Shown: positions 8,665 to 54,909 of the stretch, piece by piece
How the letters are laid out: each line of letters starts with the position of its first letter
Numbering within the stretch: the first letter of the stretch is position 1
Origin: Reclinomonas americana ATCC 50394
Lineage: Eukaryota
Direction: 5' to 3'
Length of the DNA: 64,000 nt
Assembly: GCA_048213135.1 (NCBI GenBank)
Contig: PS015010.1
Location: forward strand, 868,001-932,000
The notes under the pieces: model-generated
The model's database searches: none
Told to the model about the DNA's origin: nothing
The model's input: the letters and a program-made list of their open reading frames with translations, nothing else
Position numbers and translations under genes: made by a program

Positions 8665-10668
8665 TTACTTCTGGTCTTCTATCATAAACGTGATGGGTTG
8701 CTTGCGGTATGCGCTTACCACTTTTCCGTTTTGCCTGGCGGGTATCCATTTGGGACCGTTCTTCACCACATCAATGCAGTGCTGGGCTGTTTTAGTGCCC
8801 TTGTAATTGATGGTGGTTACATCGCCAATAGAGCCATCGCTGTATACAACAAACTGAACAACTACGCTGTATACGCCGGCTTTCCAGCCTTCATCAACAG
8901 GTATGGTTGACTTGATATTTTTCATCAGGAATTCTTTCCAGCCATCCTTTCCGCCGGGGAAACTGGCTTCTACTTCCACTTTGCTGAAAATAAGGTTACC
9001 GTCTCCGGGTTGCCGCCTGGTGGAATAACCTGTTACTACCACTTCATCCAGCTGGGCGCTGGCCAGTTTACCCCTTACTTCGGCGGCTTCTTTAAGTTGC
9101 AGGTTGGTCGTAGTCCTTGGCTTCGTGGGATACCCGGTCACCGTCACTTCTTCGATTTTCCCGGCCAGGGTCATCGCCTCCGTAACTTGTTTCACCTGCA
9201 GGTTGGTTACATTCTTTGGATAGCCTGTCACGATCACTTCATCCAGTTTGGTAGCCTGCAGCGCTTTTTCCTCAACTCTTTTCTGTTCTTCAACAGGCGT
9301 AGTGAGGGCCAGCCCGGTTACGGTTTTTACCTGTACAGGGCGGTCTTCTACAGTTTCAAATTTCAGGGTCTGTTCTTTTTCTGACGGTGTAAGGGTTATG
9401 GCTTTGGTGTTGATCTCGATCACACCATCCTTACCATCATTGCCATACTTTTTCAGCGCGGCGTCGCCTTTGAGTACACGTATTTCCGTGATCTTGTCGG
9501 GGCTGACGAGTTCGTTGATCTTGGGTTCAACGATCCTCCCGCTGCCAATGCGTTTGCCGTCAATCACGTACAGGACCTTGGCGTTTTCGGCACGTTTTTC
9601 TTCCAGTACCAGGGTGGTCTTTCCGTCGGCAGCTGTGATCGCTGGTTTCTTTTGTGCGGCACGGTCCCATTCGGCTTCAGTCGGCAGGCGGGTGGGTACC
9701 GTGTCGGAAAGGGCAATAGTCCTGATGGGGTCTTCTCTTTCGATGTAGTTGTCGGTTTGTACAGGGGCGAGCACCTGTGCCATCGCCTGCTTGTTGCGCA
9801 GTGTGAATGCGGCAAACAGCATCGCGGCCATCGGTAACACCATCAGTCGCCCGATGTAACCGGCTTTTGAATTGTTCCTCGTGAGCATAAGTAATCGTCT
9901 TTTTATAGGTGAATAGAAAAAACTACTGGAAAGCTGGAACCGGTGCTGCGGGTAAGTGGCCTGCAGTATCATGGCAGCGAACGCGGCGGTATCGTTGTTA
10001 TCGATGGCCTTGCGGTCGGCAATGAACTCATGTATCATGTTGAGTTCCCTGCGGATGAGCCAGAATACCGGGTTGATCCAGAAAAGAATGAGTATGATAT
10101 TGATGAACAGTTTATCGAAGGAATGCTTTTCACGGATATGCGCCATTTCATGCTGGAAGATCTGCCTGCCCGACACACTGTCCATATCGATCTTTTCATT
10201 CCAGAAAATATATTTAAAGAAGGAGAAGGGTGTTCCTTTGGCATTGCTGTTGATGAACGCGATGTCGCCGATCTCGCGGACAGGATATTTTTTCAGCAGG
10301 AAAGCGATGCGCATCAATCCGTACACAAGAACGAAAAGCATGATAAGCGATACGGCCAGGTAAACGAAAGGGTAGAGGCGCTCGGGCGTCCAGGAAGGAA
10401 TACTGCTCCTGATCACCACTGCTTCCATGTATTCGTCACCGGTAGATACGGCTTTGAGCATACGGATCACAGAGCCCTGTTCGGGATCGTGGGTGCTCCA
10501 CAGGTCTATCCGCACCAGTGGCAGCAGCAGCGATAATCCAGCGGCCGCCAGCAGGAAGAACCTGTTATAAGCATGAAAGTTCTTGTTGCGGAGTACCAGC
10601 CAGTAATAGCCGTACAGCAAAGCGGAACAAAGGATCACTTTAGCGATATAGTAAGCAACAGGCAGCAT
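8665..10668 (-). CDS. BlaR1/M56 metallopeptidase sensor with plug-like domain, TonB-box-like repeats and TonB C-terminal domain
   Basis: HEMAH...IHEFIAD; VLYVIDG...VLKG...YG...GVIEINTK; 3x (L/I)(D/E)EVxVTGY; ASFPGG...VVVQFVV...KWIPARQNGKVV. Confidence 0.9.
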   Translation of the reverse strand: MLPVAYYIAKVILCSALLYGYYWLVLRNKNFHAYNRFFLLAAAGLSLLLPLVRIDLWSTHDPEQGSVIRMLKAVSTGDEYMEAVVIRSSIPSWTPERLYPFVYLAVSLIMLFVLVYGLMRIAFLLKKYPVREIGDIAFINSNAKGTPFSFFKYIFWNEKIDMDSVSGRQIFQHEMAHIREKHSFDKLFINIILILFWINPVFWLIRRELNMIHEFIADRKAIDNNDTAAFAAMILQATYPQHRFQLSSSFFYSPIKRRLLMLTRNNSKAGYIGRLMVLPMAAMLFAAFTLRNKQAMAQVLAPVQTDNYIEREDPIRTIALSDTVPTRLPTEAEWDRAAQKKPAITAADGKTTLVLEEKRAENAKVLYVIDGKRIGSGRIVEPKINELVSPDKITEIRVLKGDAALKKYGNDGKDGVIEINTKAITLTPSEKEQTLKFETVEDRPVQVKTVTGLALTTPVEEQKRVEEKALQATKLDEVIVTGYPKNVTNLQVKQVTEAMTLAGKIEEVTVTGYPTKPRTTTNLQLKEAAEVRGKLASAQLDEVVVTGYSTRRQPGDGNLIFSKVEVEASFPGGKDGWKEFLMKNIKSTIPVDEGWKAGVYSVVVQFVVYSDGSIGDVTTINYKGTKTAQHCIDVVKNGPKWIPARQNGKVVSAYRKQPITFMIEDQK

Positions 10669-11920: not shown

Positions 11921-13022
11921 GTTTTTCGGCGTTGGCTGTGTTGTTGTACTGCTGAAGCAGGCCCTGCCTGTTCTGTTGTTCCTGTTCTGTAAAGGGCTCT
12001 TCAAATAATTCTTTTATTTTACCGGCAAAGGTTTCCGCCCCGGAAGCGATATGGCAATAGGGCTCCAGTCCGCTGCCTTCTACGGCTGCCTGGTTCACTA
12101 GGCAATGCCTGCCATTGAAAACCGCGTTCAGCAATTTTAGTTTTATGCCCGTTTTATTCAGCGATGGCAACACATGAATTTGTGCCTTGCCAATAAGGTC
12201 ATTCAGTTCTTTGTCGGACGGGTTACTCACCAGGCAGGTATTGCCCTGGCGGTTCACTTTTTCCTGTAAAGCGGGAGAGGGGTCTTTGCCAGCGATTACG
12301 AAAGGGATGCCGGTTGAGGTAAATACTTCATCCATCAGCCAGCAGGCGGCTTCTTCATTTTCGTTCACAGACATGTTTCCGTGATAAAGACAGAAATAAC
12401 CGCGTCCTTCATGCCCTGCCACCATGGTCCAGGGAATAAAAACCGGGAGATGGCTTATGTGTACTGCTTTGAACGTTTGCCTGTAGAGGATTTCGTCCTG
12501 TTCACTCACCGCCAGGAACTGCGCTTTGGTGGCGAGCCGGCGTTCATATTTTTTCAGTAAGCGGCTCTCGTGCAGGAAATACAACCGTTTCAGCGTATTT
12601 TTTTCGTGACGGGCCAGTTGCCGGTAATATTCAAACTCCGCGTTGTGCAGCCTTATAATCACTTTGCGACCGGGCAGCAGGTCCTTATACAGGTACCAGC
12701 TGCAGTGTATGCCTTCGAGCAGAACAGGGTGGTTGTCTTTTTGCAGGTTGGTCACCAGTTCGCTGCTGATCCTTGAACTAACGATAAAGGGTATACGAAA
12801 TGAAAAGCGGCGTACGCTTTTGTCGCGTTGATAATAATTTACACTGGCGCAATATTTTTCCAGCTCGGGCTGGGGCGGGCGTCCCTGTGTAAAGCAATGC
12901 AGGTGTACAGCTACATCCAGGCTGTGCAGCGTTCTTATTTTCCAGAACAGGTCTACCACACCGCCATAGTCCGCCGGCCAGGGAACATCATGTGTAACAA
13001 TATGGAGGTGCAGTTGCGGCAT
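11901..13022 (-). CDS. Glycosyltransferase (GT4/GT-B type)
   Basis: VPWPADYGG N-terminus, HNAEFEYY, TGIKLKLLNA. Confidence 0.85.
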   Translation of the reverse strand: MPQLHLHIVTHDVPWPADYGGVVDLFWKIRTLHSLDVAVHLHCFTQGRPPQPELEKYCASVNYYQRDKSVRRFSFRIPFIVSSRISSELVTNLQKDNHPVLLEGIHCSWYLYKDLLPGRKVIIRLHNAEFEYYRQLARHEKNTLKRLYFLHESRLLKKYERRLATKAQFLAVSEQDEILYRQTFKAVHISHLPVFIPWTMVAGHEGRGYFCLYHGNMSVNENEEAACWLMDEVFTSTGIPFVIAGKDPSPALQEKVNRQGNTCLVSNPSDKELNDLIGKAQIHVLPSLNKTGIKLKLLNAVFNGRHCLVNQAAVEGSGLEPYCHIASGAETFAGKIKELFEEPFTEQEQQNRQGLLQQYNNTANAEKLISFLR

Positions 13023-13027
13023 GGGTG

Positions 13028-14120
13028 TTATCCTTCTTTATGGAGATTGGCGTAAAAGGCCAGCAGTTTCTTTTCTTCTTCTTCCCAGTTCAGTTTCGCG
13101 GCGGCTTCCGGGCAATTGGCGCGGAGCCGGGCATGCAAGGCCTCATCCTGCAATAAGGTATTGATAGCTTCGGCAATGGTCGCAACGGCAACATCTTCCA
13201 CCAGCAGGGCCACTTCGTACGCTTTATTGACGCGGGCATATTCCGGGAAGTTCATGGTTACCTGTGGTATGCCCAGTTGTATATAATCAAAAAACTTGTT
13301 GGCCAGCGAATAATACTGGTTCAGTCCAATGGGTTCTACGAGGTTGATGCCGATATAGGCTTCCCTTGTCACCGCGTCCAGTTCACCGGGCAGTACCTTA
13401 CCCTTCAGCAACACTTTATTCTGCAGATTGTTGAGCTGTACCAGCTCTTTTATCTTTTCCATCAGGTTGCCGTCGCCATAAATATGCAGTTCCGCCGGCA
13501 CCTGCAGCATAGCGGGTACCAGGTATTCCAGTCCGCGGGCTTCGTTTACTGCTCCCTGGTAGAGCACGATTTTTTTTTCCTGCGGATGGGGCAGGAGCGG
13601 GTTGTTTCCGCAGGGGCAGGTTGCGGATCACACCATAATTTACACCGTAACGGCGGTCAAATTCGGCAGCAATGCCCTCACTGACGGTATAACCCTGGGG
13701 GAAACGGGGTATAAAGCGTTTTTCTATCCAGTGCCAGACCCGGTGTACCCGGGGGCGGGTCACCACTTCCTTTTGCTCGGAAAAGAACTCATGCGCATCA
13801 TAAACACGGCCCTTGCCGCGGATGACGGAGGCCAGCCATACGGGCAGCATCGTATCCAGGTCGATACAGCAAAACCGGTCGGTTTTCACAAAAAGCAGGA
13901 AAAAGAAAAGCCGGATGTTGTACGCCGCGTAAAAGGCAAACCCCTTTTTAAAGGGAACAGCCAGTCTTTTTTGCCGGAAAGGCTGTTCATGAAGCGGTTC
14001 GGCATTATTTACCCCTGCCAGGGTTACCCGGTAACCGGCGGCAGTAAGGGAACGGCAGATCCGGATCATGCGCTGGTCATGGTTCAGGCCATTGGTCACT
14101 GTGAATACGATCCGCTTCAA
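13028..14120 (-). pseudogene. GT4 glycosyltransferase split by a frameshift in an A9 run (13570-13578); may be a sequencing error
   Basis: N-half (DQRMIRIC, VYDAHE) and C-half (LYQGAVNEARG, SLANKFFDY) join as GKKIVLYQG if one A is removed. Confidence 0.8.
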
Positions 14121-14264
14121 AACCAGGGAGATACTGTTTAAAAATGAGTGCCGGGGCTGTTTTAAATGGTTCAACAGGAAGCCTTTCCCTTTCCCGGCCG
14201 GGGGCTTCCGGGGCAATATTCAAAAAAAAACCGCAATTCACCGCCTAAAAATCAATTTTTTAAG

Positions 14265-14272
14265 TACTTTTG
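14265..14272 (+). promoter_or_regulatory. -7 promoter box for rpsO-pnp
   Basis: TACTTTTG = TAnnTTTG, 60 nt before the rpsO ATG. Confidence 0.6.
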
Positions 14273-14332
14273 CAGCCGAAATAAAGAAAATAAAAACGGC
14301 GCCAATCCGGGTGCCAGTAAAATTAAAATTAG

Positions 14333-19729: not shown

Positions 19730-20152
19730 AGACGTCCGCTGCATAAAAAAACTCCACCTACTAGTGGAGTTTTAGTTGTCTCGTCACTTTTACTTTACGT
19801 CCACGACATTATCTATATTTTACTTAACGTAAACCGACCTATAGTGGTCTGCTTGTNNNNNNNNNNNNNNNNNNNNAACGTAACGTTAAGTTAAGTTAAC
19901 GTAACGTAACGTACGGTACGTACGTAACGTAACGTAACGTACGTACGTACGTACTAACTAAACTAACTACTACGTAGTGTGTGTTTTTTATGCCTGCACT
20001 TTTTACTGCCAGACATTATCATTATTTTTACAACGAAAACCGCTATAGTGGCTGCTTTGAGACAAGCCACCAACGACAGGACCTTACCATTGCTTGCTGT
20101 ATGTATCTACAGCGGTACACTTCCTGTCGCGGTTAATAAAAAACTAACTGCT

Positions 20153-38638: not shown

Positions 38639-38661
38639 AGGGATAATTTGGGATGAGAATG

Positions 38662-39088
38662 TCGCCGGGGTCGCTTCACTCGCTTTGCATCGTTCCAGAG
38701 ACCGCGGCGGAACTACATCTGGTGTTCCGCCGCAGTCTTTGCGTAGCAAGACCCCGGTGTTATAGCTTATTCAAATGTCTTTATAATGAGTTTGCAGTTC
38801 CGCCGCAGTCTTTGCGTAGCAAGACCCCGGCGTTATAGCTTATTCAAATGTCTTTATAATGAGTTTGCAGTTCCGCCGTGGTCTTTGTGCAGCACGCCCC
38901 CGGTGTTATAGCTTATTCAAATGTCTTTATAATGAGTTTGCAGTTCCGCCGTGGTCTTTGTGCAGCAAGACCCGGGTGTCATAACCTATTCAAATGTCTT
39001 TATAAGGAGTTTGCGGTTCCGCCGGGGTCTTTGCGTAGCAAGACCCGGGTGTCATAGCCTATTCAAATGTTTTTATAATGAGTTGGGA
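38662..39088. repeat. Inverted REP doublet plus 5 x 73-bp tandem array
   Basis: Units begin GTTCCGCC at 38724, 38797, 38870, 38943, 39016; hairpin GGTC-TTTGC-GTA-GCAA-GACC. Confidence 0.95.
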
Positions 39089-39626
39089 TAAAATGCATAG
39101 CCATGCCTGTTTCATAAAACGCTGCGCTGCTGTGCTCATAGGTGGTATAAATATCAACCAGGTTCCATCTCCCTTTAACAGGATTATGATGTATATATTC
39201 CAGTTTCTGCAAAAGAAAGGACTCTGACCATATCGCTCTCGCGTCAAAAGAATCCCTGAAGACCTTATGCAATTGACCTTTAGCCCGTTCCCGCTGACTT
39301 ACAGCATTTCCAAGACAGGTCAGCAACGGCAAGGAGTTCATGTTGTCCAATCGTTTTATGATCTCATAAGAAATGAATCTCTTGCCATTGGATATCGTGT
39401 TGCCTAAAGAAGATAAAGCAGCCTTGTTGTATAAGATTACATGAACGTGATTAGGCATAATAACATAAGCAATAATGCGGTAACGGTATTTTCCCTCAAT
39501 AATATTGAACCAATTGTAAATTAAATCATAACTGTGTGTGATCTTTATCAAGGGAAGCCAATTCCAGCATGTAAACGTGCAATAGTATAGTAATGCTTCA
39601 TCCGATCTTTTAAAACGGGTACTCAT
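39063..39626 (-). mobile_element. REP-associated tyrosine (Y1 HUH) transposase, RAYT/TnpA-REP
   Basis: YCTFTC, AYVIMPNHVH (HUH), QKLEYIHHNPV (catalytic Tyr), YEHSS; flanked by REPs. Confidence 0.92.
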
Positions 39627-39696
39627 ATGTGATTTTAGGTTGAAATTATTTATGCAGACTATAGCTTACTATGCGGGTTTTACGTAGCATAAAATG

Positions 39697-39868
39697 ACCG
39701 GGGTCGCTTCACTTGCTTCGCTTCGTTGCAGAGACCCCGGCGGAACGTAAGAGATAATGTTGCTTTTATCACCGGGGTCGCTTCACTCACTTTGCTTCGT
39801 TGCAGGGACCCCGGCGGAACTACATCTGGTGTTCCGACGGGGTCTTTGCGGAGCAAGACCCCGGTGTG
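39697..39868. repeat. REP cluster upstream of RAYT
   Basis: CCGGGGTCGCTTCAC...GACCCCGGCGGAAC at 39698 and 39772; the same GGAAC-TACATCTGGT-GTTCC doublet as 38709-38728. Confidence 0.9.
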
Positions 39869-40051
39869 CCGACTTTTCATAGTTATAAATATGTCCAACT
39901 GGTGCAAATTTTCCCCATTTCCTTATTTAATTTCTCTATCTTGATCGTAACAAGCGGGTTGAAACCAGAAATAACCGCTTGCAAAAAATTGGCAAACCAA
40001 TTGTAATTAGTATACACATCACCATCATACCATCACCTTAAAACGATCATT

Positions 40052-41950: not shown

Positions 41951-42141
41951 GAGACAAGTTTATCGTTGATGCCCAAAGATAGGCCGTACAAGTGAGTGAC
42001 ACAACGCTGATCCCATGAAAAGCCGCAGCCAGGGCAAAATTCAAAAGTAAAAATTAAAAAACGGGGTTATCCCTGCGGGGAATGTCCATCATAAAAGGTA
42101 AACTGTTACTTTTGGCTTCTCAAAAAAGAAAAACGATTGCC

Positions 42142-43635
42142 ATGAGTTATAATTACCTGCCCCTCGATAAACAACCCACCAATTTTCAGCAGATCAAAAA
42201 CCTCCTGGCCTTCGACCAGCTGGTGTCCATCACTTTTGATGCGCATTTCCGCATTACCGAGTGCAGGGCTTACCTGGACAGGAAGATGGAAGAAGAAAAT
42301 TCACTTTATTACGGTATCAATACGGGCTTTGGCTTTTTGCAGAATGTACGGGTAGATAAGGACCAGTTGGCGGCGCTGCAAAGCAACCTCATACAATCGC
42401 ATGCCTGCGGGATGGGGGAGGAAGTACCAAAAGATATTGTGAAGCTGATGGTGATGCTGAAGATCAAATCGCTCAGTTATGGCCACAGCGGTGTGCAGAT
42501 AGATACGGTAAAAAGGTTGATGGATATGTACAATGCCGATATGTTCCCTGTCATTTATACCCAGGGGTCACTCGGCGCATCAGGCGACCTTGCCCCGCTC
42601 AGTCACCTCAGCCTGCCGCTGATAGGACTGGGTGAAGTGAATTATAAAGGACAGCGGATGTCAGCCGCGGAAGCGCTGAAACAGGAGGGATGGGAACCTA
42701 TTGTATTGCAAAGTAAAGAAGGACTGGCGCTCATCAATGGTACACAGTTCATGAGTGCTTATGGTTTGCACAACCTGGTGCAGGCCGACCGTTTGCTGAA
42801 ATGGGCCGATATTATTGCCGCCATCAGTTTCGATGCCTTCGATTGCACCACCGAACCGCTCAATGAAAAAATACACGCCATCCGCAGTCACAAAGGGCAG
42901 GTGCATACCGCCGCCCGCTTGCGGGAACTGCTCAGTGGCAGCGCCATCGCCGCACAGAAAAAATCGCAGGTGCAGGACGCTTATTCTTTCCGTTGCACAC
43001 CGCAGGTGCATGGCGCTACCAAAGACACTGTGGAATATGTACAGTCTGTTTTCATTAAAGAAATCAATTCTGTAACCGATAACCCCAATATCTTCCCCGA
43101 CGATGACCTCATCGTTAGTGGTGGTAACTTCCACGGTCAGCCGCTGGCGCTTACGCTCGACTTTTTGAGTATCGCCATGAGCGAGATCGGCAGCATCTCC
43201 GAACGCCGTACTTACCAGCTCATTAGCGGGCAGCGTGGTCTGCCGCCTTTCCTGGTAAAAGATGCCGGTCTGCATTCCGGTTTGATGATACCGCAGTACA
43301 CCGCAGCCGGCATCGTAAGTGAGAACAAGCAATTGTGTACCCCCGCGTCTGTAGATTCCATACCATCCAGCAACAACCAGGAAGACCATGTAAGCATGGG
43401 CGCCAATGCTGCCACCAAATGCAAACGGGTGATCGATAACGTAGAGAAGGTACTCGCTATAGAGCTGCTCACCGCCGTACAGGCATTGGAGTTCCGCAGG
43501 CCGCTGCAAAGTTCGCCGGCCATTGAAGCCATAGTAAGCGAATTCCGCAAAGAGGTTTCCTTCAATGATGCAGACAGGATACTGCATGAGGATATGAAGA
43601 AGGCGGTGGCGTTTATTCAAATGGATACAATGTGA
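42142..43635 (+). CDS. hutH: Histidine ammonia-lyase
   Basis: YGINTGFG, GASGDLAPL (MIO Ala-Ser-Gly), KEGLALINGT, QDAYSFRC, GNFHG; -7 box at 42107. Confidence 0.97.
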   Translation: MSYNYLPLDKQPTNFQQIKNLLAFDQLVSITFDAHFRITECRAYLDRKMEEENSLYYGINTGFGFLQNVRVDKDQLAALQSNLIQSHACGMGEEVPKDIVKLMVMLKIKSLSYGHSGVQIDTVKRLMDMYNADMFPVIYTQGSLGASGDLAPLSHLSLPLIGLGEVNYKGQRMSAAEALKQEGWEPIVLQSKEGLALINGTQFMSAYGLHNLVQADRLLKWADIIAAISFDAFDCTTEPLNEKIHAIRSHKGQVHTAARLRELLSGSAIAAQKKSQVQDAYSFRCTPQVHGATKDTVEYVQSVFIKEINSVTDNPNIFPDDDLIVSGGNFHGQPLALTLDFLSIAMSEIGSISERRTYQLISGQRGLPPFLVKDAGLHSGLMIPQYTAAGIVSENKQLCTPASVDSIPSSNNQEDHVSMGANAATKCKRVIDNVEKVLAIELLTAVQALEFRRPLQSSPAIEAIVSEFRKEVSFNDADRILHEDMKKAVAFIQMDTM

Positions 43636-43681: not shown

Positions 43682-44557
43682 ATGAGTAGGTTTTTTTATT
43701 TCATAGGTTTAAGCTTCTCTTTATCCTTTTTCATTTCCTGCCACAGGAATGAGGCCCGATATTATTTAAAGGAGCAATGGCTGACCACTTCTTCAAAACA
43801 CTTCCCGGTAAGATCAAATCCCGCAGAAGTTATCGAATACTTTTATAATGGGGTTTCAGCTATTGATACAAACATAATTGTCAACAGCAAAGCTTATGAT
43901 TTGTATGCTTATGACGGAGTAGGTAATTTGTTAAAGCGGGAACTGTATTACGCTGATAGTATGGGTGTTAAAAGTATTCATCAGTATAAAACTGATGGGT
44001 ACAGCATCAGCTATTTTTATCAAAGTAGAGCGGACATTAAACTACAGAAAAAATACCTGTTTGAATCCGTTTCGGGCGGGAAATTCCGGGCGACGAATAC
44101 TTCTGATTCATCTGATAAAAAGGCGACCTATTATTCTTACAAAAAGAATGGGGATCAGGTTATTATTGAACAACAATTTGAAGACAGGCAACAGGCCCAA
44201 ATTGATGTATATGACGGACAGCGACCCTTAACCAGAACAATACAAGTGACCAATAATTCGATTTCAAGTACTGCGGTCACACAGTATTATTATGGGAAAG
44301 ATAAAGGTCTTGACAGTATTATAGAAAAAAGTGAGAATGCAAGCAGGATAATATTTACTCGAAATAAACAAGGTGACCCTATTACAGAATTGGTGATCGA
44401 TTCGAAGAATGATACAATCAGGTATCTCGCTTATACTTATCGCTACGATGATAAGGGAAACTGGGTTCGCCGGGTTGAAGAGGACCATTCGCCTGTAAGT
44501 CCTTATTCTCTTCATCAAAAGTATAGTCTGATTATTCGCCGGATCGCATATCGTTAG
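43682..44557 (+). CDS. AT-rich hypothetical lipoprotein with YD/RHS-like motifs
   Basis: Lipobox FISC; YAYDGVGNL, YTYRYDDKGNW. Confidence 0.7.
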   Translation: MSRFFYFIGLSFSLSFFISCHRNEARYYLKEQWLTTSSKHFPVRSNPAEVIEYFYNGVSAIDTNIIVNSKAYDLYAYDGVGNLLKRELYYADSMGVKSIHQYKTDGYSISYFYQSRADIKLQKKYLFESVSGGKFRATNTSDSSDKKATYYSYKKNGDQVIIEQQFEDRQQAQIDVYDGQRPLTRTIQVTNNSISSTAVTQYYYGKDKGLDSIIEKSENASRIIFTRNKQGDPITELVIDSKNDTIRYLAYTYRYDDKGNWVRRVEEDHSPVSPYSLHQKYSLIIRRIAYR

Positions 44558-44688: not shown

Positions 44689-46368
44689 ATGTCAGCCACT
44701 ACCGTTTCCAAGTACGACCCCATTAAGTATAAAACCCCTACAGGCAATACCTTAAACTGCAAAGGCTGGGTACAGGAAGCCGCCCTTCGCATGCTGCTCA
44801 ACAACCTCGATCCCGAAGTGGCCGAACGCCCCGATGACCTCATCGTATACGGCGGCAGGGGAAAAGCGGCACGTAACTTTGAAGCGCTCGACAACATCAT
44901 CAAAGGACTGAAAATACTGGAAGAAGATGAATCGCTGCTGATACAAAGCGGCAAACCCGTGGGCATTCTCAAAACACATAAAGATGCACCCCGCGTACTG
45001 CTCAGCAACAGCCAGCTCGTACCCAACTGGGCCAACTGGCACCACTTCGATGAACTGGAAAAGAAAGGCCTCATCATGTACGGGCAAATGACCGCCGGTT
45101 CCTGGATATACATCGGTTCGCAGGGCATTGTGCAGGGAACGTATGAAACGTATGCAGCCGCGGCCGATAAACATTTCGGCGGCACACTCAAAGGCACGCT
45201 CAACGTAACCGCCGGCCTGGGTGGTATGGGTGGCGCTCAGCCGCTGGCCATTACCATGAACGAAGGTGTGGCGCTCATCGCTGAAGTAGAGGAGTGGCGT
45301 ATCGACAAACGTATCGAAACCCGTTACTGCGACGAAAAATTTACGGATATAGACGCGGCCATCGATGCCGCATTACAATATAAAGCTGCCGGTGAGGCTA
45401 AAAGCATCGGCGTGCTTTGCAATGCCGTGCATCTTTTGCAACGGCTGATCGACCGCAACATCATTCCCGATACACTCACCGATCAAACCAGCGCCCACGA
45501 TCCGCTCATCGGTTATGTACCGCACACCCTCAGCAACGAACAGGCCAATGCGTTGCGTAAAGACAATCCAGATCAATACATCAGCCTCAGCTACGACAGT
45601 ATGAAACTGCACGTGGAACTGATGCTGCAGTTACAGCAACTGGGCGCCATTACATTCGATTACGGCAATAATATCCGTGCCCGCGCCAAAGAACGCGGAC
45701 TGGAAAATGCGTTTGATTTCCCCGGGTTTGTACCCGCGTATATACGTCCGCTCTTCTGCGAAGGCAAAGGGCCTTTCCGCTGGGCGGCACTCAGTGGCGA
45801 TCCTGCCGATATAGCCGTTACCGACGAGCTCATCATGAACATGTTCCCCGAAAACAAAGGGCTCCTGCGCTGGATGAAAATGGCGAAAGAAAAGATCGCC
45901 TTCCAGGGGCTTCCTGCCCGCATCTGCTGGCTGGGACAGGGTGAACGCGAAAAAGCGGGACTTGCCTTCAACGAACTCGTACGCAATGGTAAGGTGAAAG
46001 CGCCCATAGTTATAGGACGCGACCATCTTGATACCGGCTCCGTAGCCAGTCCCAACCGCGAAACAGAATCCATGATGGATGGCAGTGATGCCATTGCCGA
46101 CTGGCCCATCCTCAACGCCCTGGTGAACACCGCCGGTGGCGCCAGTTGGGTAAGTCTGCACCACGGCGGTGGAGTAGGTATGGGATACAGCATTCACGCC
46201 GGTATGGTTATAGTAGCCGATGGTACCGCCGATGCTGAAGCCCGCCTGGCCCGTGTTCTCCGCAATGATCCGGGTATGGGTGTGATCAGGCATGCGGATG
46301 CGGGGTATGAGATAGCGAAAGAGACAGCAAAAGAACATCATCTTGATATAGAAGGAAAACTGAAGTAA
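44689..46368 (+). CDS. hutU: Urocanate hydratase
   Basis: [48 protein letters not shown]; -7 box at 44654. Confidence 0.98.
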
Positions 46369-46378
46369 CGCTTCCTTT

Positions 46379-46727
46379 CGCCGCTGCCTGGTCTCCTGAC
46401 CAGCAGCATATGTGATGTACCCAACTGCTGTACTACTATTGAGCTGTAGTGGCGTCGCACTCTTGTGCAGTATCACTTTATTCACCGCCGCTGCTTCGTC
46501 TCCTGACTAGCAGCATTTGTGGGATTTTTCATGTACCCGTCTGCTGTACTGCTATTGAGCTGCAGTGGCGCCGTAGTCTTGTGTCGTATCGCTTTACTCT
46601 CGCCGCTGCCTGATCTCCTGACTAGCAGCATCTGTGGGTATTTCATGTACCCAGCTGCTGTACTGCTATTGAGCGTAACAGGAAGCAATTTGTAATGCTT
46701 GGGAGAGTTCTCTTCGAGTAAAAGAGC
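46379..46727. repeat. Three tandem ~110-bp composite units headed by REP GCTGC-CTGGTC-TCCY-GACCAG-CAGC
   Basis: Units at 46379, 46486, 46601; the block recurs at 54662-54828. Confidence 0.9.
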
Positions 46728-46764
46728 AATTGCATCAATGACATGCATAGGAGCTGTGTTTATG

Positions 46765-46797
46765 TAATAAATTTCATATATTTATTAGTTGTACGCA
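46765..46797 (+). other. Putative attI-like primary site / left boundary of the cassette array
   Basis: TAATAAAT-N7-ATTTATTA inverted repeat abutting G|TTGTACGCA (46788-46797). Confidence 0.45.
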
Positions 46798-47760
46798 ACC
46801 TAATACAAACCTTATGGACAATTTAAACGACTTACATATTCTGACAGACGATGGTGTAATTGGCTTGACAAGCCACAATACACTTGAGACAAACGTAACT
46901 TTTGACAAAGCCGAGGCTTATTTTAAAGATGTTGAGAAATCTCTCATTAAAAAAATTGAAGATAATTCTAAAGGGTTCATTTTTGGAAGTGTTGCCTGGT
47001 TGACATCAGAAAAAATAATTAGCGCTTTAGCCAAATGTGACAATGTTCAAATATTAATACAGAAAGAAGATTTTCTAAGACCAGACTATGGTGACAATTT
47101 TAAAGAAAAAGAAAGAAGACAAAAATATAGGACTCTATATTCAACACTAAAGTTTTTGCATGACAAATTTGATTGCCGTCCACCAATATGTAACCTATCC
47201 ACAGGTGGTGACCCAACTGTTGAACCAGTTAGATGTTTAGGAAATGTCAACTCTGGCCTAAAGAAAGCAATGCCAAGAGCTCATAATAAATTCCTTGTTT
47301 TTTGCAACCAGATAAAAGAATCGTCAGACCAAACAAGACAAAAGAGTGAAAGTATTTATAAGCCAATTGCAATATGGACAGGTTCTTTCAATTTTACATA
47401 CAATGCGGACAAGTCATTTGAAAATGCAATCTATTTAGAAGACAAATCGGGTGACAATCCATTGATAGAATCATATTTAAAAGAACATCACCAAATATTT
47501 GCATTATCTGAACCATTAGATTGGGAACATCATTGGACGGAACCTGAATATAGGATTGGGACATAGGTATGCGTACAACATTGGATTTTATACAAGTTGT
47601 GTATGGCCAGTAAACATCAACAAATTGCAAAGCCAGGTAGGTGTTCGGGCTGGACAAATAACTTTCAGCTTTAGTTCTTAAACTCAGCTTTATATTTTCA
47701 ATCAGCAGAGGTTATCGGCTGACGGATTTCTAATTCCCAACCTGCACAAAGCCTCGGCCG
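46789..47760 (+). mobile_element. Integron-like gene cassette 1 (972 bp, PLD gene)
   Basis: Start GTTGTACGCA is the exact reverse complement of TGCGTACAAC just after the stop codon. Confidence 0.7.
46814..47566 (+). CDS. Single-domain phospholipase D-superfamily protein (Nuc-like putative nuclease)
   Basis: VAWLT, AHNKFLVFC (HxK, with C at the usual Asp position), WTGSFNFT, ENAI. Confidence 0.82.
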   Translation: MDNLNDLHILTDDGVIGLTSHNTLETNVTFDKAEAYFKDVEKSLIKKIEDNSKGFIFGSVAWLTSEKIISALAKCDNVQILIQKEDFLRPDYGDNFKEKERRQKYRTLYSTLKFLHDKFDCRPPICNLSTGGDPTVEPVRCLGNVNSGLKKAMPRAHNKFLVFCNQIKESSDQTRQKSESIYKPIAIWTGSFNFTYNADKSFENAIYLEDKSGDNPLIESYLKEHHQIFALSEPLDWEHHWTEPEYRIGT

Positions 47761-47768
47761 TTATCTGT
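47570..47768 (+). other. attC-like element A
   Basis: AAC 47577-79 and GTT 47760-62; inner arms TTTTATACAAGTTG (47586-99) and CAACCTGCACAAAG (47738-51). Confidence 0.7.
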
Positions 47769-50629
47769 CAGGCAAAACGAAACCCCGATGAAACAAACGA
47801 AGTCTTAAAAAAACGAGTAACAAATATGATATTGACAATAAGTATCATTGTGATTGCATTGTTAGCGGCTTTTATTGTTTACCGACAATCGTTAGAAAAG
47901 AAAAAATATCAAGACGGAACTTACCTATCTAACTTACAACAAATTGCTTCGTTTTTTGACACAATCCAATCCCTAAACGACTACGTTACTTGGGTACAGC
48001 GTGACGAAATAAAAGCGACATATTCGGAAGTCGGAAAATATTTTAAAAGCAAATTCAACTTTTATAAAAAAGAAGAAGCCATAAAAAAATTCAATGAGAT
48101 TTTCAGCGACCTTGATAACTACGTTGTCCGATACAATCAAAACTATGTCCGTGAGCAAAAGGAAAAACTTAACCAATATTTTGATGATATTGAGGGCAAA
48201 AAGTTAGATGAGCAACAACGAACAGCACTAATAACAGACGAGTATTCAAACTTGATTATTGCTGGTGCAGGTTCGGGAAAAACTTTAACTATTATTGGTA
48301 AAGTGAAATATTTGATAGAGCAGAAAAATGTAAAACCCGAAAACATTTTACTTCTATCATTCACTAAAAAAACGGTCGATGAATTAAATGAACGATTAAA
48401 GAACATTGGATTGAGTGCAAGAGCAACGACTTTTCATAAACTTGGATACGATACTATAAAAAAGCACTTAGCAACTGTTCCAGTATTAACCAATGAAAAC
48501 ACATTAGGTAAAATTGTCAGAGATTATTTGACAAAAGAAATCCTCGACAACTCCGAAGCCTTAGAAGCCTACATTGTTTACGTGGCTTGCTATATGAGTA
48601 TTCCAGAAAAACACGAAAGCTATAACTCACTTGGTGAAAAATTAGATACTGAAAAAGGCATTGATTTTCAAACTTTGAAATCTAAATGCGAACCAGAATT
48701 AAACAAAGTTGCCAAAGCGTTACTTGGCACGATTCAAGGTGAAAAAGTAAAAAGCGTTGAAGAGCTTACGATAGCAAACTTCTTGTACCTAAACGGCATT
48801 GAGTACGAATACGAAAAAGCATATCCCTTTAGCAGTACTGTTTATCGTCCCGATTTTTATCTCAAAGACTACGACATTTATTTGGAACATTTTGGTGTTG
48901 ACGAAAACAACAGAGCCAAATGGCTGACACCATTCAACGAACGGAAATATGTCGAAGAAATGGAGCTAAAAAGAGAAGCTCATAAAACACATGGCACCAA
49001 ACTTTTAGAAACCTATTCCTATTACAACAGAGACCACATTTTGCTCGATAAGCTGCGGGAAATGTTGGAAAATGAAAATGTAATTTTTAAGCCAAGAGAT
49101 GCAAAAAGCATTTACGCCAAAGTAACCGACAGCGACAAAAATTTCGGAAAGGAAATCACAAACCTTATTGTAACATTTATCAACCTTAGTAAATCACGAC
49201 AATTAAGCTGTGAGGCAATAATATCGCTATTTTCAGACAGCAAAAAAGCCGAAAATAGTTATATGCTCGAACGACAGGAAATCTTTTTGAAATTCGCTCT
49301 GCCAGCCCTCAAAAAGTATGATAGTACGCTACGAGAGAAAAATGAAATTGATTTTAATGATATGATAAATAAGGCGACTGGTATCATCAAGGAAAGTAAG
49401 CCTGCATACAACTATCAACACATCATCATTGACGAGTATCAAGATATTTCCTATTCTCGTTTCAATCTCATTAAGCAAATTCGAGAATTGTCGGGGGCGA
49501 GACTAATTTGTGTTGGCGATGATTGGCAATCTATTTATCGATTTGCAGGTAGCGACATTTCTTTGTTCAGCAATTTTGAAAAGTACGTCGGCAAACACGA
49601 GCAGCTATTTATTGAACAAACATATCGTAATTCGCAATCGCTCATTGACATAACTTCAAAGTATATTCAAAAAAACACCAAGCAAATTTCTAAAAATCCG
49701 AGGTCAAAAAAAGAGTCTTTGGAAAACCCCATTAAATTTGTCTATTATTCACAAGACAATGCCGATGATGTTTTCATCAATGCAATCCAAACACTCATCG
49801 ACAAAAACGGCAAGAAGCCTATTTTGGTATTGGGTCGTCATAGCTTTGACATCAACGAATTTATCAAACTCACACCCAACAGCAAGATTAAATATTACGA
49901 ACGAAGTGATGAATTGGAAGTGCAAGGCTTTGGAGACATTGACATCAAATACATAACCGTACATAAATCCAAAGGATTGGAAGCAGACAATGTAATCGTA
50001 CTAAACCTAAAAAATCACCTGCTCGGTTTCCCCAACAAAATGACAGACGACCCAATGTTGTCCTTATTACTTAGCGATGATGAAGAATATCGTTTTGCAG
50101 AAGAGCGAAGACTGTTTTATGTGGCACTCACACGGACGAAAAATGAAGTTGTGTTGCTTATTCCGACCGATGTTTCTCTGTTTGCAGAAGAACTCATTAA
50201 AGATAACGGCTTTTTGCTGACAACAGTTAACGAACAAGCAAGCAAAACAAATTGTCCATATTGCCAAACAGGACATCTTGTTGTTCGACAAAATTCTGTA
50301 AAAAACAATCAATTTTTAGGATGTTCGCATTACCCAGCTTGCAATCAGACATTTAATGACATCGAAATTTTGGAAAACACAATACTTTGCCCAAGTTGCA
50401 AAAGTGGGTTTATGATAAAAAGGAGTGGACAATACGGAAACTTTTTAGGATGTACAAATTATCCGAAATGCAGAAACACAATAAATCTGCACACTGCTCG
50501 AACAGATAACGTCGATTTTGAATAATGACGGGTGAAGTGCTACTATGAAGTATTTCAATAAATTTGAACTTCGGCTCTTCGTTTCAAAGGTAATGCTACA
50601 ATGCCCCTGCTTCGCAATGCCCGAAACCG
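47761..50629 (+). mobile_element. Integron-like gene cassette 2 (2869 bp, helicase gene)
   Basis: Start GTTATCTGT is the exact reverse complement of ACAGATAAC (50502-50510) at the gene end. Confidence 0.7.
47826..50525 (+). CDS. UvrD/helicase IV-like SF1 helicase with N-terminal TM, nuclease-like insert and two C4 zinc ribbons
   Basis: AGAGSGKT, IIDEYQD, VGDDWQSIY, TVHKSKGLE, EERRLFYVALTR; YRPDFYL..IYLEHFG insert; CPYC/FLGC..YP.C twice. Confidence 0.92.
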   Translation: MILTISIIVIALLAAFIVYRQSLEKKKYQDGTYLSNLQQIASFFDTIQSLNDYVTWVQRDEIKATYSEVGKYFKSKFNFYKKEEAIKKFNEIFSDLDNYVVRYNQNYVREQKEKLNQYFDDIEGKKLDEQQRTALITDEYSNLIIAGAGSGKTLTIIGKVKYLIEQKNVKPENILLLSFTKKTVDELNERLKNIGLSARATTFHKLGYDTIKKHLATVPVLTNENTLGKIVRDYLTKEILDNSEALEAYIVYVACYMSIPEKHESYNSLGEKLDTEKGIDFQTLKSKCEPELNKVAKALLGTIQGEKVKSVEELTIANFLYLNGIEYEYEKAYPFSSTVYRPDFYLKDYDIYLEHFGVDENNRAKWLTPFNERKYVEEMELKREAHKTHGTKLLETYSYYNRDHILLDKLREMLENENVIFKPRDAKSIYAKVTDSDKNFGKEITNLIVTFINLSKSRQLSCEAIISLFSDSKKAENSYMLERQEIFLKFALPALKKYDSTLREKNEIDFNDMINKATGIIKESKPAYNYQHIIIDEYQDISYSRFNLIKQIRELSGARLICVGDDWQSIYRFAGSDISLFSNFEKYVGKHEQLFIEQTYRNSQSLIDITSKYIQKNTKQISKNPRSKKESLENPIKFVYYSQDNADDVFINAIQTLIDKNGKKPILVLGRHSFDINEFIKLTPNSKIKYYERSDELEVQGFGDIDIKYITVHKSKGLEADNVIVLNLKNHLLGFPNKMTDDPMLSLLLSDDEEYRFAEERRLFYVALTRTKNEVVLLIPTDVSLFAEELIKDNGFLLTTVNEQASKTNCPYCQTGHLVVRQNSVKNNQFLGCSHYPACNQTFNDIEILENTILCPSCKSGFMIKRSGQYGNFLGCTNYPKCRNTINLHTARTDNVDFE

Positions 50630-50637
50630 TTAATGGC
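50502..50637 (+). other. attC-like element B (degenerate)
   Basis: ACAGATAAC at the left end and CCGTTAAT (GTT 50629-31) at the right; weak inner arms. Confidence 0.55.
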
Positions 50638-50944
50638 TGTTTTGTACGACACTCTCTGCCCACAAAAACAGAATGGCAAAATTTCCAATTCTAATACCAT
50701 TCATGTTGTCTTTTACTGTCATTGGAAAACAAAATTTGGCACTGCACTGGTACCAAACCACTCTCCCTGAGTATACCAGTCTTTNNNNNNNNNNNNNNNN
50801 NNNNNNNNNNNNNNNNNNNNNNNNNNNNNNNNNNNNNNNNNNNNNNNNNNNNNNNNNNNNNNNNNNNNNNNNNNNNNNNNNNNNNNNNNNNNNNNNNNNN
50901 NNNNNNNNNNNNNNNNNNNNNNNNNNNNNNNNNNNNNNNNNNNN

Positions 50945-51450
50945 CCCCGGCCCTCTCCCTCTACCCTTTCTTTTTCTATTCGTTGCCGAATTTTATACTG
51001 GGGTACATATTTTAAACTTTCGGCCAGTTCTTCCAAGAGCCCGGTTTCTGCGAAGCTGTAATACCCGGTGGGGCTGATGATAAAATGGTCGACGATTTTA
51101 ATATTGATGAGTTCCCCGCACTGGATAAGCTGATTGGTGAGGTCTTTGTCTTGCGGCGAGGGCATTAAATTGCCGGAGGGATGGTTGTGCACGAGTATGA
51201 TGGTGATGGCCTTTTTCTGCAATGGTATGCTGAATACTTCCATGGGTTCGGCAATGGTTTGGGTGGCACTGCCCATACTGATGAGTTCGATATTGAGGAT
51301 TTTACGGGCATTGCTAAGGCTGATGACCCAGAAGTGCTCGCGGTTGCGGTCTATCTTATTTTCCCGCATGAGTATGCGCTTCATAATCTCGAACACCTCC
51401 ATGGGGTTCATTGGTTTGCTCTTTTCGTCGGGTGTCAATTTAATGTTCAT
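50945..51450 (-). CDS. RadC/JAB domain protein (3' end lies in the gap)
   Basis: REHFWVISL, EPMEVF, HNHPSGNLMPSPQD, DHFII; runs into EGEGR at the gap. Confidence 0.88.
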
Positions 51451-51837
51451 TTGGTACGTGTTAAAGATAAATGAATGCACTTCTTCCCTGCCCTGCTTTG
51501 GCGGGAAATAAGTTCATGTAAAATATATAATAAGACGACCGGGACGATTGCGGGGATTACGTATGTGGTGGGGGAATTTTCTTTTGGGGATGGGGAATAA
51601 AACGGGAGGAGGTGGGNNNNNNNNNNNNNNNNNNNNNNNNNNNNNNNNNNNNNNNNNNNNNNNNNNNNNNNNNNNNNNNNNNNNNNNNNNNNNNNNNNNN
51701 NNNNNNNNNNNNNNNNNNNNNNNNNNNNNNNNNNNNNNNNNNNNNNNNNNNNNNNNNNNNNNNNNNNNNNNNNNNNNNNNNNNNNNNNNNNNNNNNNNNN
51801 NNNNNNNNNNNNNNNNNNNNNNNNNNNNNNNNNNNNA

Positions 51838-51951
51838 GAGGACCGTAAAGCCCGCGCCATGGCCAAGGCTATGAAGCAAAATGGCGAACCTGTAAGCAAA
51901 ATTGTACAATACACTGGCTTAAGCAAACACGTCATCAGCCGGTTGAAATAA
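51838..51951 (+). CDS. C-terminal fragment with Rpn-like HTH tail (5' part lies in the gap)
   Basis: EDRKARAMAKAMKQNGEPVSKIVQYTGLSKHVISRLK*. Confidence 0.65.
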   Translation, partial: EDRKARAMAKAMKQNGEPVSKIVQYTGLSKHVISRLK

Positions 51952-51963
51952 TTGAAAGTATTT

Positions 51964-52078
51964 GCCGCTGCCTGGTCTCCCGACCAGCAGCATACGTGGG
52001 TATTTGCCGCTGCTTGGTCTCCCGACCAGCAGCATATGCGGGTATTTCGCCGCTGCCTGGTCTCCCGACCAGCAGCAT
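51964..52078. repeat. Three tandem REP copies (42-43 bp period)
   Basis: GCCGCTGCYTGGTCTCCCGACCAGCAGCAT at 51964, 52006, 52049. Confidence 0.92.
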
Positions 52079-52265
52079 ATGTTAGGAAATCCGGCACCGC
52101 GTTCCGTGGGAACGCCTGGTGGGTTATATCCGCCAGGAATGCAAAACCCCAATTGCAGCTGTACAATAGGTGTCACTGAAATATCAGCGATGGTTGAGGC
52201 CGGTATGGCGCTACTGAGCTTTTGTTCTTAACTTCATCGTTATTAATTGTAGTAGTTTAAACTAT

Positions 52266-52514
52266 ATGATGTTTCTTTTCAAAGTAGACGAACGGTTTAT
52301 GATCACAGGGCTGGGACTGATTTTAGTACCTGGTCTTGGAGACAAAAAGGCGAAGACAGGAGACCCAATAAAAATAATCAGGCCCGATCAAACAATTGTT
52401 GAAACAACTATCAGGGGAATTGGCTTGAATGAATTTCGTGATATTCTTGTTGGCAAAAACCTGACAAAAGATGATGTCCCAATAGGCTCAGAAATTTGGT
52501 TAAATAAGCAATAA
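52266..52514 (+). CDS. Small hypothetical protein, EF-Tu domain II-like beta-barrel
   Basis: FKVDERFMITGLGLILVPG...GDPIKI..PD...TTIRGI...KDDVPIGSEIW. Confidence 0.6.
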   Translation: MMFLFKVDERFMITGLGLILVPGLGDKKAKTGDPIKIIRPDQTIVETTIRGIGLNEFRDILVGKNLTKDDVPIGSEIWLNKQ

Positions 52515-52870
52515 TGAAAGTTGATATTGAAAAATATAAAATTGGCTCAAAAATACTCTCAGGAACAGACCTCAAATTTGTATTCCAAAATCTTTATGAA
52601 ACGACAGATATAAAAATCCTGGAGTTAAAAGGGGTTGTTGGTTTCATAGACAACATTCATGCAGGAAAGGAAATTAAAACCTTACTACTTAACGCTGAAG
52701 GTGGTTCATATAATCTCGACCTTTCTCTCAGGCTACAGCAACCAGAGATTAACAAATTTCCTGAAGTTTTCATTTTTTTAGATACTGAATGTGTGGATTT
52801 TTGCTTTAGGGCAGTCGCAAAATATATTGATTTTAGAGATTGGACTGAAAATGACAAATGGCTTCCATAG
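52514..52870 (+). CDS. Hypothetical protein
   Basis: 118 aa, TAATG-coupled to the upstream ORF, AT-rich. Confidence 0.6.
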   Translation: MKVDIEKYKIGSKILSGTDLKFVFQNLYETTDIKILELKGVVGFIDNIHAGKEIKTLLLNAEGGSYNLDLSLRLQQPEINKFPEVFIFLDTECVDFCFRAVAKYIDFRDWTENDKWLP

Positions 52871-54411: not shown

Positions 54412-54486
54412 GTAGAGCCTGCTGGCTTCTGTGGAGCAGGTATTATACCCCGGTCTATAACATATNNNNNNNNNNNNNNNNNNNNT

Positions 54487-54600
54487 GAGGACCGTAAAGC
54501 CCGCGCCATGGCAAAGGCTATGAAGGAAAAAGGCTACAAAATCACCGAAATCGTCGAACTCACAGGGCTCAGCAAACACGTCATCAGCCGGTTGAAGTAA
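54487..54600 (+). CDS. Second Rpn-like HTH tail fragment (5' part lies in the gap)
   Basis: EDRKARAMAKAMKEKGYKITEIVELTGLSKHVISRLK*. Confidence 0.65.
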   Translation, partial: EDRKARAMAKAMKEKGYKITEIVELTGLSKHVISRLK

Positions 54601-54661
54601 TAGGGTAGTTAGTAGTGATTAGCAAGTGTTTAGTATAAATGCCCACCGGCGGGGAGGAGTT

Positions 54662-54909
54662 GCCGCTGCCTGGTCTCCCGACCAGCAGCATATGTGGTTT
54701 TTTTCATGTACCCAACTGTTGCACTGCTATTGAGCTGCAGTGGCGTCGCACTCTTGTACAGTATCACTTTATTGAGCGTAACAGGAAGCAATTTGTAATG
54801 CCTGGAAGAGTTCTCTTCGAGTAAAAGAAAGTATTTGCCGCTGCTTGGTCTCCCGACCAGCAGCATACGTGGGTATCTCGCCGCTGCTTGGTCTCCCGAC
54901 CAGCAGCAT
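54662..54909. repeat. REP composite unit plus two tandem REPs
   Basis: REPs at 54662, 54837, 54880; intervening sequence matches 46379-46727. Confidence 0.9.

Follow-up and report, generated by a model that had tools for sequence, protein, structure and literature searches.

Two ageing integron-like gene cassettes downstream of hutU, probably stranded from a Bacteroidota system of Xer-like recombinases

We analysed a 64-kb stretch of DNA (positions 868,001 to 932,000 of contig PS015010.1, assembly GCA_048213135.1, Reclinomonas americana ATCC 50394), referred to here at its full length as the window, in which two AT-rich genes lie downstream of the histidine-utilisation gene hutU. An earlier note on this DNA had described the two genes as an integron-like cassette array with long attC-like sites and no integrase in view. 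Our results indicate that positions 46789-50629 are, in all likelihood, two complete but ageing cassettes of an integron-like system with a wide occurrence among Bacteroidota, left behind as a stranded remnant lacking a recombinase. Each cassette would consist of one promoterless-looking open reading frame (ORF) followed by ...AAC, a spacer, an imperfect stem of ~18 bp, a second spacer and G|TT, the bar marking the boundary; cassette 1 would carry a site of a ~190-nt class and cassette 2 one of a ~125-nt class. As the cassette ends at G|TT, the first 15 nt following GTT would pair with the 15 nt that precede the AAC of that cassette, and the full stem would exist in the excised circle only. 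Comparison of the DNA with related loci brings out G|TT boundaries, complementary cassette ends, a covarying hairpin between cassettes and arrays that start beside a gene for an Xer-like tyrosine recombinase. Labels of the form L### and G### are our own and denote fetched loci and genomes, respectively.

Results

Two Independent Cassettes Bounded at G|TT

The cassette stretch has a GC content of 0.32-0.38, compared with 0.54-0.56 in hutU, and two + strand ORFs lie inside it (Table 1). The five motifs listed in the earlier note as cassette ends were all recovered from the window letters, namely GTTGTACGCA (46788-46797), TGCGTACAAC (47570-47579), GTTATCTGT (47760-47768), ACAGATAAC (50502-50510) and GTTAATGG (50629-50636), and the element between the two genes does measure 186 nt from AAC at 47577 to GTT at 47762, as had been given. 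The complementarity of the ends is longer than first noted, reaching ~15 nt in both units with one bulged T each: GTTGTACGCA-ACCTA pairs with TAGGTATGCGTACAAC in cassette 1, and GTTATCTGT-CAGGCA pairs with TGCTCGAACAGATAAC in cassette 2. The third boundary proposed at 50629 is borne out by a match to the ~125-nt site profile described below, which ends in CCGTTA at 50632; for the unit that starts there, the window yielded neither a right arm to match nor another hit of the attC profiles.

Table 1. Positions in the window of the cassettes, their ends and sites, and the flanking features
Feature	Position	Strand	Comment
hutH	42082-43635		histidine-utilisation gene
hutU	44689-46368		histidine-utilisation gene; upstream of both cassettes
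attI-type junction motif TATATTTA-N3-GTT	46777..46790	+	reads TATATTTATTA|GTT in the window; ends on the GTT of cassette 1
Cassette 1	46789..47760	+	972 nt between G|TT boundaries; contains the PLD/HKD-like gene and attC; GC 0.32-0.36
Cassette 1 left arm GTTGTACGCAACCTAA	46788..46803	+	pairs with 47564-47579 except for one bulged T
ORF P0001, 250 aa	46814..47566	+	HKD/PLD-family nuclease-like
Cassette 1 right (R''-side) arm TAGGTATGCGTACAAC	47564..47579	+	L080 shares the arm pair with 1 mismatch in 15
attC-like site A	47573..47762	+	~190-nt class; left third decayed
Cassette 2	47761..50629	+	2869 nt; helicase gene and attC
Cassette 2 left arm GTTATCTGTCAGGCA	47760..47774	+	kept at the boundary in L001, L005, L013 and L039; covaries with the right arm in L006
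ORF P0002, 899 aa	47826..50525	+	hydrophobic stretch at the N terminus, core like UvrD/helicase IV, two Top1-type zinc ribbons at the C terminus
Cassette 2 right arm TGCTCGAACAGATAAC	50495..50510	+	within the 3' end of the helicase ORF
attC-like site B	50501..50632	+	~125-nt class; partly decayed
Third unit start (TTAATGG...)	50630..50785	+	ends at an N run
N runs	50786-50945, 51618-51837, 54467-54486		160, 220 and 20 nt; downstream of the cassettes; ~400 nt unreadable in total

The exact location of the boundaries was read from homologous loci. A scan of species-representative genomes returned relatives of the cassette 2 helicase in 79 loci, at 66-87% identity, from Sediminibacterium, Flavobacterium, Chitinophagaceae and others. 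In blastn comparisons with these loci, homology of the helicase unit starts at 47760 in L001, L005 and L013 and at 47761 in L039, and it ends at 50510 in L002, L005, L027 and L039, at 50509 in L003 and L031, and at 50541/50542 in L013/L001. The flanks past these ends are unrelated between loci. The two ends also covary, L006 having GTTAGCGG.../...CCGCTAAC where the window has GTTATCTG.../...CAGATAAC (the L006 ends read GTTAGCGGTCAGGCA on the 5' side and TGCCCGAACCGCTAAC on the 3' side). Relatives of the PLD gene of cassette 1 were found at 73-76% identity in five metagenome loci, and one of these contigs, L080, carries the gene with the same GTTGTACGCAACC start and TGCGTACAAC end in an unrelated neighbourhood; L081 and L082/L083 are without the ends of cassette 1. 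Homology breaks at G|TT, as had been predicted, at the start of the helicase unit in four loci, and both ends of the PLD unit recur in L080.

The two genes do not occur together in the loci compared: none of the 79 helicase loci gave a match to the PLD protein (best E = 3.6), and the five PLD loci hold no helicase homology. As the PLD protein is missing from every helicase locus, the two genes represent independent units, which together with the exact homology breaks and the ends shared with L080 corroborates the proposal of two separate cassettes bounded at G|TT.

Taken by themselves, the complementary 9-10-nt end pairs on which the earlier note had drawn are present as described but constitute no evidence. 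A repeat search of 46300-50785, ~4.5 kb, gave 97 inverted pairs of at least 9 nt, several of them longer than the pairs first noticed (exact 12-mers and 11-mers among them), and a simple scan for GTT/AAC end pairs with control triplets did not discriminate. These counts, and the finding that the spacers in the window fold no better than shuffled sequence, are what one would expect if chance inverted repeats merely surrounded two ordinary horizontally acquired genes and no cassette system existed. It is the comparison with other genomes that lifts the repeats beyond chance: the boundaries match homology breaks to the base in several genomes, the ends covary, and both spacers match independent attC profiles when nothing else in the 64 kb does. 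Chance is in our judgement an exceedingly improbable explanation.

Both Spacers Match attC Families of Recombinase-Headed Arrays

Site profiles were built with nhmmer from sequences other than the window, using 26 ~190-nt sites from 10 recombinase-headed arrays and 10 ~125-nt sites from 8 arrays. The ~190-nt profile gives one strong match in the 64 kb, at 47642-47771 (E = 6.4e-24, profile positions 83-213 of 216), and the ~125-nt profile gives exactly two matches in the window, at 50501-50632 (E = 5.4e-7, full length) and at 47648-47773 (E = 6.8e-7). The long spacers, which the earlier note had called attC-like, thus both belong to attC families of recombinase-headed arrays in Chitinophagaceae.

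An RNAalifold analysis of 12 ~125-nt sites of relatives yielded a 5-bp AAC/GTT helix and a 17-bp stem, with compensatory changes in 16 of the 22 pairs. In this consensus fold 91.3% of cells are paired, compared with 68.1% in shuffles (none of 500 reached the observed value) and 29-41% when slid. Of the 22 consensus pairs, 14 can form in site B, as against 19-22 in the 12 reference sites and 20 in the L013 site linked to the helicase. DNA fold z-scores of the relatives' sites are -3.0 (L013) and -2.0 (L001). The profile matches, taken with the fewer pairs and with a fold no better than that of shuffles, lead us to regard both spacers as genuine but eroded members of the attC families.

We also used a hairpin detector that searches for AAC...GTT 50-260 nt apart with 30-nt arms and allows A.C, the equivalent of G:T on the other strand. 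It found all 7 sites of Flavobacterium sp. A45, two in L001, one in L013 and two in L080. The strand bearing the A.C mismatches scores higher in 12 of 12 detected sites, meaning that the bottom strand, with its G:T pairs, folds better.

The comparison with Rfam and its Flavo-1 family that had been suggested places the attC-like sites outside Rfam families: there are no matches in the window, and 15 related loci gave only rRNA and two Flavo-1 matches, none on an attC site. Both Flavo-1 matches are in L094, at 9132-9209 and 3373-3469 (55.2 and 54.9 bits, gathering score 42); one lies ~170 nt upstream of the array-heading recombinase gene, and neither overlaps an attC-like site.

Membership in these families also bears on a reading in which the PLD and helicase genes form a two-gene defence operon on a small genomic island, with spacers that are terminators or REP elements. 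Both proteins do resemble defence parts, and other hairpin repeats are interspersed in abundance around the cassettes. Yet none of the 79 helicase or 5 PLD loci has the two genes side by side, and the spacers are members of the attC families rather than of the REP-like family found locally. We consider such an operon very unlikely.

Xer-like Recombinases Head the Arrays in Relatives

The earlier note had envisaged a dedicated Bacteroidota cassette system and had proposed looking for tyrosine recombinases at the head of such arrays. We found them in Flavobacterium sp. A45 and in Chitinophagaceae. Flavobacterium sp. A45 (G004, L094) encodes P0123, a tyrosine recombinase of 347 aa; after its gene come an attI region and then at least 7 same-strand cassettes up to the contig end, separated by 124-125-nt repeats (...AAC, stem, loop, stem, GTT) and each having complementary ends of 13-15 nt. 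In a sample of 301 genomes of Chitinophagaceae, the family of G002, P0123 has matches at E <= 1e-50 in 118, six of which are full-length at 64-71% identity. From this family we fetched 16 loci bearing a form of the recombinase 37-46% identical to P0123; same-strand sites lie downstream of the recombinase in 12 of them, with up to 8 sites in 9 kb, and the 16 loci together give 51 site matches, compared with 1 in one shuffle per locus. The 12 site-bearing loci include G096 and G270, which are among the closest genomes by hutU (89% and 85%).

The array-heading enzymes are 345-390 aa in length and Xer-like. The domains of P0123 are Phage_integrase and Phage_int_SAM_4, among NCBIfam models it fits XerA_Arch best ('site-specific tyrosine recombinase/integron integrase'; 217 bits, cut-off 220, with two relatives at 222.8 and 225.6), and the best solved-structure matches are the XerA-like 4a8e and 5hxy. 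Scores against the integron-integrase model TIGR02249 are 204-219 bits, under the cut-off of 265. Against VchIntIA (2a3v) the match splits, P0123 having 20 residues for 62 of IntI and the G096 enzyme 17 for 57, so that the array-heading recombinases are without ~40 residues of IntI. The missing stretch is presumably the location of the IntI-specific extra domain. Judged from these alignments, the array-heading recombinase appears to lack the extra domain, and it falls outside the class of classical integron integrases.

This result weighs on the question of whether the window could be the remnant of a classical integron, a CALIN, with ordinary attC sites served by a canonical IntI elsewhere in the genome. 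Integrons likewise have AAC/GTT cores, a hairpin, boundaries at G|TT and ORFs that run in the same direction, and canonical IntI, scoring over the TIGR02249 cut-off, does exist in 2 of the 301 Chitinophagaceae genomes (G091 and G256), one copy having an internal stop codon. However, none of the five helicase-bearing genomes has one, an Xer-like recombinase heads the arrays at 12 of the 16 loci, the two canonical-IntI loci, on short contigs, give no significant match to either site profile (best E = 0.0057), and sites of 124-196 nt with ~15-bp end arms are at odds with this origin. A classical remnant is therefore unlikely.

The 15-nt imperfect inverted ends that directly flank each gene could alternatively be the ~15-bp terminal inverted repeats of small non-autonomous transposons mobilised by a transposase in trans, and many helicase loci indeed retain the ends without a hairpin. 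Against this, the units abut head to tail with one shared G|TT and a conserved, covarying hairpin between them, five inspected 5' junctions show no target duplication, the arrays begin at a tyrosine recombinase gene, and unrelated cassettes have a common GTT... end consensus. We regard transposons as highly improbable, and favour cassettes of a recombinase-headed system.

The Window Probably Holds a Fossil Array

No member of the Xer-like family could be detected in the window: the best tblastn E values are 0.44 and 0.92, and a profile of 23 recombinases run against the 399 open frames of at least 60 aa in the window gave a best E of 0.15. The relevant recombinase family is thus absent from the readable part of the 64 kb, in line with the earlier statement that no integrase is in view; the three N runs cannot be read.

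At the left end of cassette 1 we noted an attI-type junction motif (Table 1). In 12 recombinase loci the first cassette boundary, judged by eye, lies ~90-130 nt after the stop codon and is preceded by ...TATA(T/A)..., and TATATTTA-N1-4-GTT stands at the first boundary in 5 of the 16 Chitinophagaceae loci (L125, L126, L131, L132 and L140). The window has two matches to the motif, one of them this junction, where 0.18 are expected. This is a weak sign that cassette 1 may occupy a former attI from beside which the recombinase gene has disappeared, and it suggests that such a gene once adjoined the array, rather than the recombinase always acting from elsewhere.

A recombinase encoded elsewhere and acting in trans had been proposed for these cassettes. 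The hairpin arms, however, have decayed (14/22 pairs, fold z-scores of 0.05 and -0.5, no detector match), and a fossil array is more likely. Present-day mobility is doubtful since the sites fold no better than shuffles and are missed by the detector; the window array is probably a stranded, immobile two-cassette relic.

In the mechanism that we propose, an Xer-like tyrosine recombinase encoded upstream on the same strand, as seen in relatives and by extension once in the window, would release a cassette in circular form through recombination between two folded sites and would insert circles at attI, with one DNA strand preferred; these last steps are drawn by analogy with integrons. We lean, with some reserve, towards a Bacteroidota analogue of the integron, represented here in Chitinophagaceae, in which an Xer-like recombinase without the IntI extra domain captures and shuffles genes via long folded sites with 15-bp end arms, the window being a fossil of it from which the recombinase gene was deleted beside attI.

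Several observations weigh against this interpretation. The DNA fold z-scores of site A (0.05) and site B (-0.5) are no better than those of shuffles, and the hairpin detector gave 5 matches scoring at least 24 in the window, compared with 4-10 in five shuffles, none of them at the two spacers. Only 5 of the 79 helicase loci (L001, L006, L013, L032 and L039) have a recognisable site directly after the gene, leaving 74 without one. Behind the same helicase gene with the same end arms lies a ~125-nt site in L001, L013, L032 and the window, and a ~190-nt site in L006 and L039. Site and gene thus do not always move as one, in contrast to textbook cassettes. At ~82% coding identity the non-coding flanks are hard to align anyway, and for this reason the case for a homology break is strongest at the exact 5' starts, in L080 and in the covariation of the ends. 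Of the 16 recombinase loci, three are without a site and one has an upstream match only, and the proposed link between recombinase and array draws on their adjacency. A 63-nt attI profile gives E = 78 in the window, so that the attI reading leans on an 8-nt motif. Finally, the only public read runs with this DNA are two that cover some of it (shares 0.08 and 0.39) in short contigs of low depth, with no joints or bridging pieces, which is evidence neither for nor against excision.

Cargo of the Two Cassettes

P0001, the product of cassette 1, scores 23.8 bits against Pfam PLDc_2, under the cut-off of 27, and its translation contains AHNKF and GSFNF motifs of the HxK...GSxN type. We collected 979 homologues, some of which are labelled 'HKD family nuclease' in their source. 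The protein has no PADLOC or NCBIfam match; at E <= 1e-30 no homologue occurs in the 301 Chitinophagaceae genomes, and viral contigs searched with P0001 gave none. In L080 the neighbouring cassette (1-430) encodes a protein end that looks restriction-enzyme-like by eye.

P0002, the product of cassette 2, matches Pfam UvrD-helicase (2.1e-42), UvrD_C and two copies of Zn_ribbon_Top1. Its score against the NCBIfam helicase IV model NF008276 is 320.9 bits, under the cut-off of 543, which places it outside DNA helicase IV (HelD) proper. The stop codon is later than in most relatives, and the last AAC core falls inside the ORF. P0002 also matches PADLOC GajB (E = 6.7e-47), and we considered the two-gene system Gabija (GajA and GajB); we rejected it, as nothing GajA-like adjoins the helicase gene, whose upstream neighbour is the PLD cassette, unrelated to GajA. 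In L001 the helicase cassette is followed by a further cassette with a ~430-aa ORF and its own 124-nt site (12873-14330), and this small array ends ~1.8 kb from a 5S/23S rRNA operon. The predicted cargo, an HKD/PLD-type nuclease and a helicase IV/UvrD-type helicase, plausibly represents independent accessories for phage defence or DNA repair.

Neighbourhood of the Cassettes

A comparison with empty sites was sought in the genomes whose hutU is most similar (protein identity of 90% and 89%), which share hutH-hutU only and nothing downstream, so that no empty site is definable. Between hutH and hutU lies another low-GC (0.36-0.38) ORF of 291 aa (43682-44557), with no Pfam match and no GTT/AAC cassette ends visible at its flanks.

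Downstream of the cassettes, a RadC-like JAB-domain gene on the - strand (50946-51480, Pfam E = 9.6e-36) is truncated by the first N run. It is followed by small AT-rich ORFs of unknown type (52266-52870), just upstream of which the ~190-nt attC profile has a weak match (52183-52247, E = 2e-4). Two of the N runs are each followed by the 3' end of a small gene, nearly identical in both places (51838-51951 and 54487-54600). The N runs may be scaffold gaps at repeats, and could conceal a further attC site.

A ~115-nt repeat occurs in three tandem copies after hutU (46372-46725) and in one copy at 54.7 kb (54660-54830), the 58-nt tail at 46667-46725 recurring at 54771-54828. Tandem units of 42 nt at 51958-52081 and 54837-54909 share with the ~115-nt units the hairpin GCCGCTGCCTGGTCTCC(T/C)GACCAGCAGCAT, of which the window has 9 copies where none are expected. 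Part of the 115-nt unit is found at several intergenic places in G216 and G096, the two closest genomes. We considered the 115-nt repeats as possible attC remnants and rejected the idea, the profile matches being weak (E = 0.015 and worse) and the copies interspersed in G216 and G096; since they match those interspersed copies, we treat them as a separate family. The ~115-nt and 42-nt units form a lineage-specific family of interspersed repeats.

Farther upstream, a minus-strand ORF (~39090-39630) that by eye resembles a REP-associated (IS200-type) tyrosine transposase lies between a 73-nt tandem repeat of 4.9 copies (38724-39084) and, near 39746 and 39820, inverted copies of the GC-rich palindrome of that repeat. 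The region 38640-39880 would on this judgement be a REP/RAYT-like locus. An ACGT-rich array of short tandem units with periods of 5-31 spans ~100 nt at 19877-19976.

Discussion

Integrons are the textbook device for gene capture, and they are defined by the integrase IntI and its extra domain. The arrays described here, as a variant of the integron of which the window would be a decayed two-cassette member, share much with them. Same-direction single-gene cassettes, folding AAC...GTT sites, the G|TT boundary and the bottom-strand bias recall the sedentary chromosomal integrons and CALINs as treated in parts of PMC9024848. The description of an attC site as an imperfect hairpin with paired AAC/GTT boxes, conserved in structure over sequence, fits the sites of the relatives, and the window sites match it in eroded form. 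The window resembles a CALIN, an integrase-less remnant with at least two attC sites, in form only, CALIN being defined by the attC model of IntegronFinder. Unlike in classical integrons, the recombinase scores under the IntI cut-offs and points the same way as the cassettes, and the sites are 124-196 nt long with ~15-bp end arms.

The array enzymes are linked to Xer-type recombinases (archaeal XerA, XerC/D) by structure and by NCBIfam XerA_Arch matches of 217-226 bits around the cut-off of 220. Unlike Xer acting at dif, they carry an extra N-terminal part of ~75 residues and head arrays of hairpin-site cassettes rather than a chromosome dimer-resolution site, although dif-like sites were not searched for. 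The existence and role of the IntI-specific extra domain are set out in portions of earlier work (PMC2426708; 10.1101/2022.02.06.479319; PMC4792948).

Integron cassettes have been discussed as stores of anti-phage defence genes, at least in part of a recent preprint (bioRxiv 10.1101/2024.07.02.601686). The nuclease-like and helicase-like cargo described here, and the restriction-enzyme-like neighbour in L080, are reminiscent of that account (10.1101/2024.07.02.601686). In contrast to those cassettes, the defence role proposed here comes from sequence alone, and the helicase matches GajB models without a GajA partner.

According to the relevant part of the IntegronFinder 2.0 paper, Bacteroidetes earlier had In0 elements only and now have one complete integron, in Salinibacter ruber (PMC9024848). 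Surveys, as represented in that part, treat Bacteroidota as nearly integron-free (PMC9024848), and reviews, in the passages concerned, list them among the integron-bearing phyla without detail. A full-text search found no published description of cassette arrays with Xer-like recombinases in Bacteroidota, although supplementary tables outside that search could list such arrays.

The system described here would add a major phylum, both environmental and host-associated, to those that exchange genes as cassettes, and it would account for solitary AT-rich defence-type genes with GTT.../...AAC ends between core genes. In annotation, the profiles of the two site classes detect cassettes that integron-specific tools may miss. 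The arrays also offer a natural test of which protein features are needed for recombination of folded DNA. If our interpretation is correct, cassette recombination at folded sites would be possible without the domain thought to define integron integrases, and the system would either have arisen independently or be an early form of the integron that has survived.

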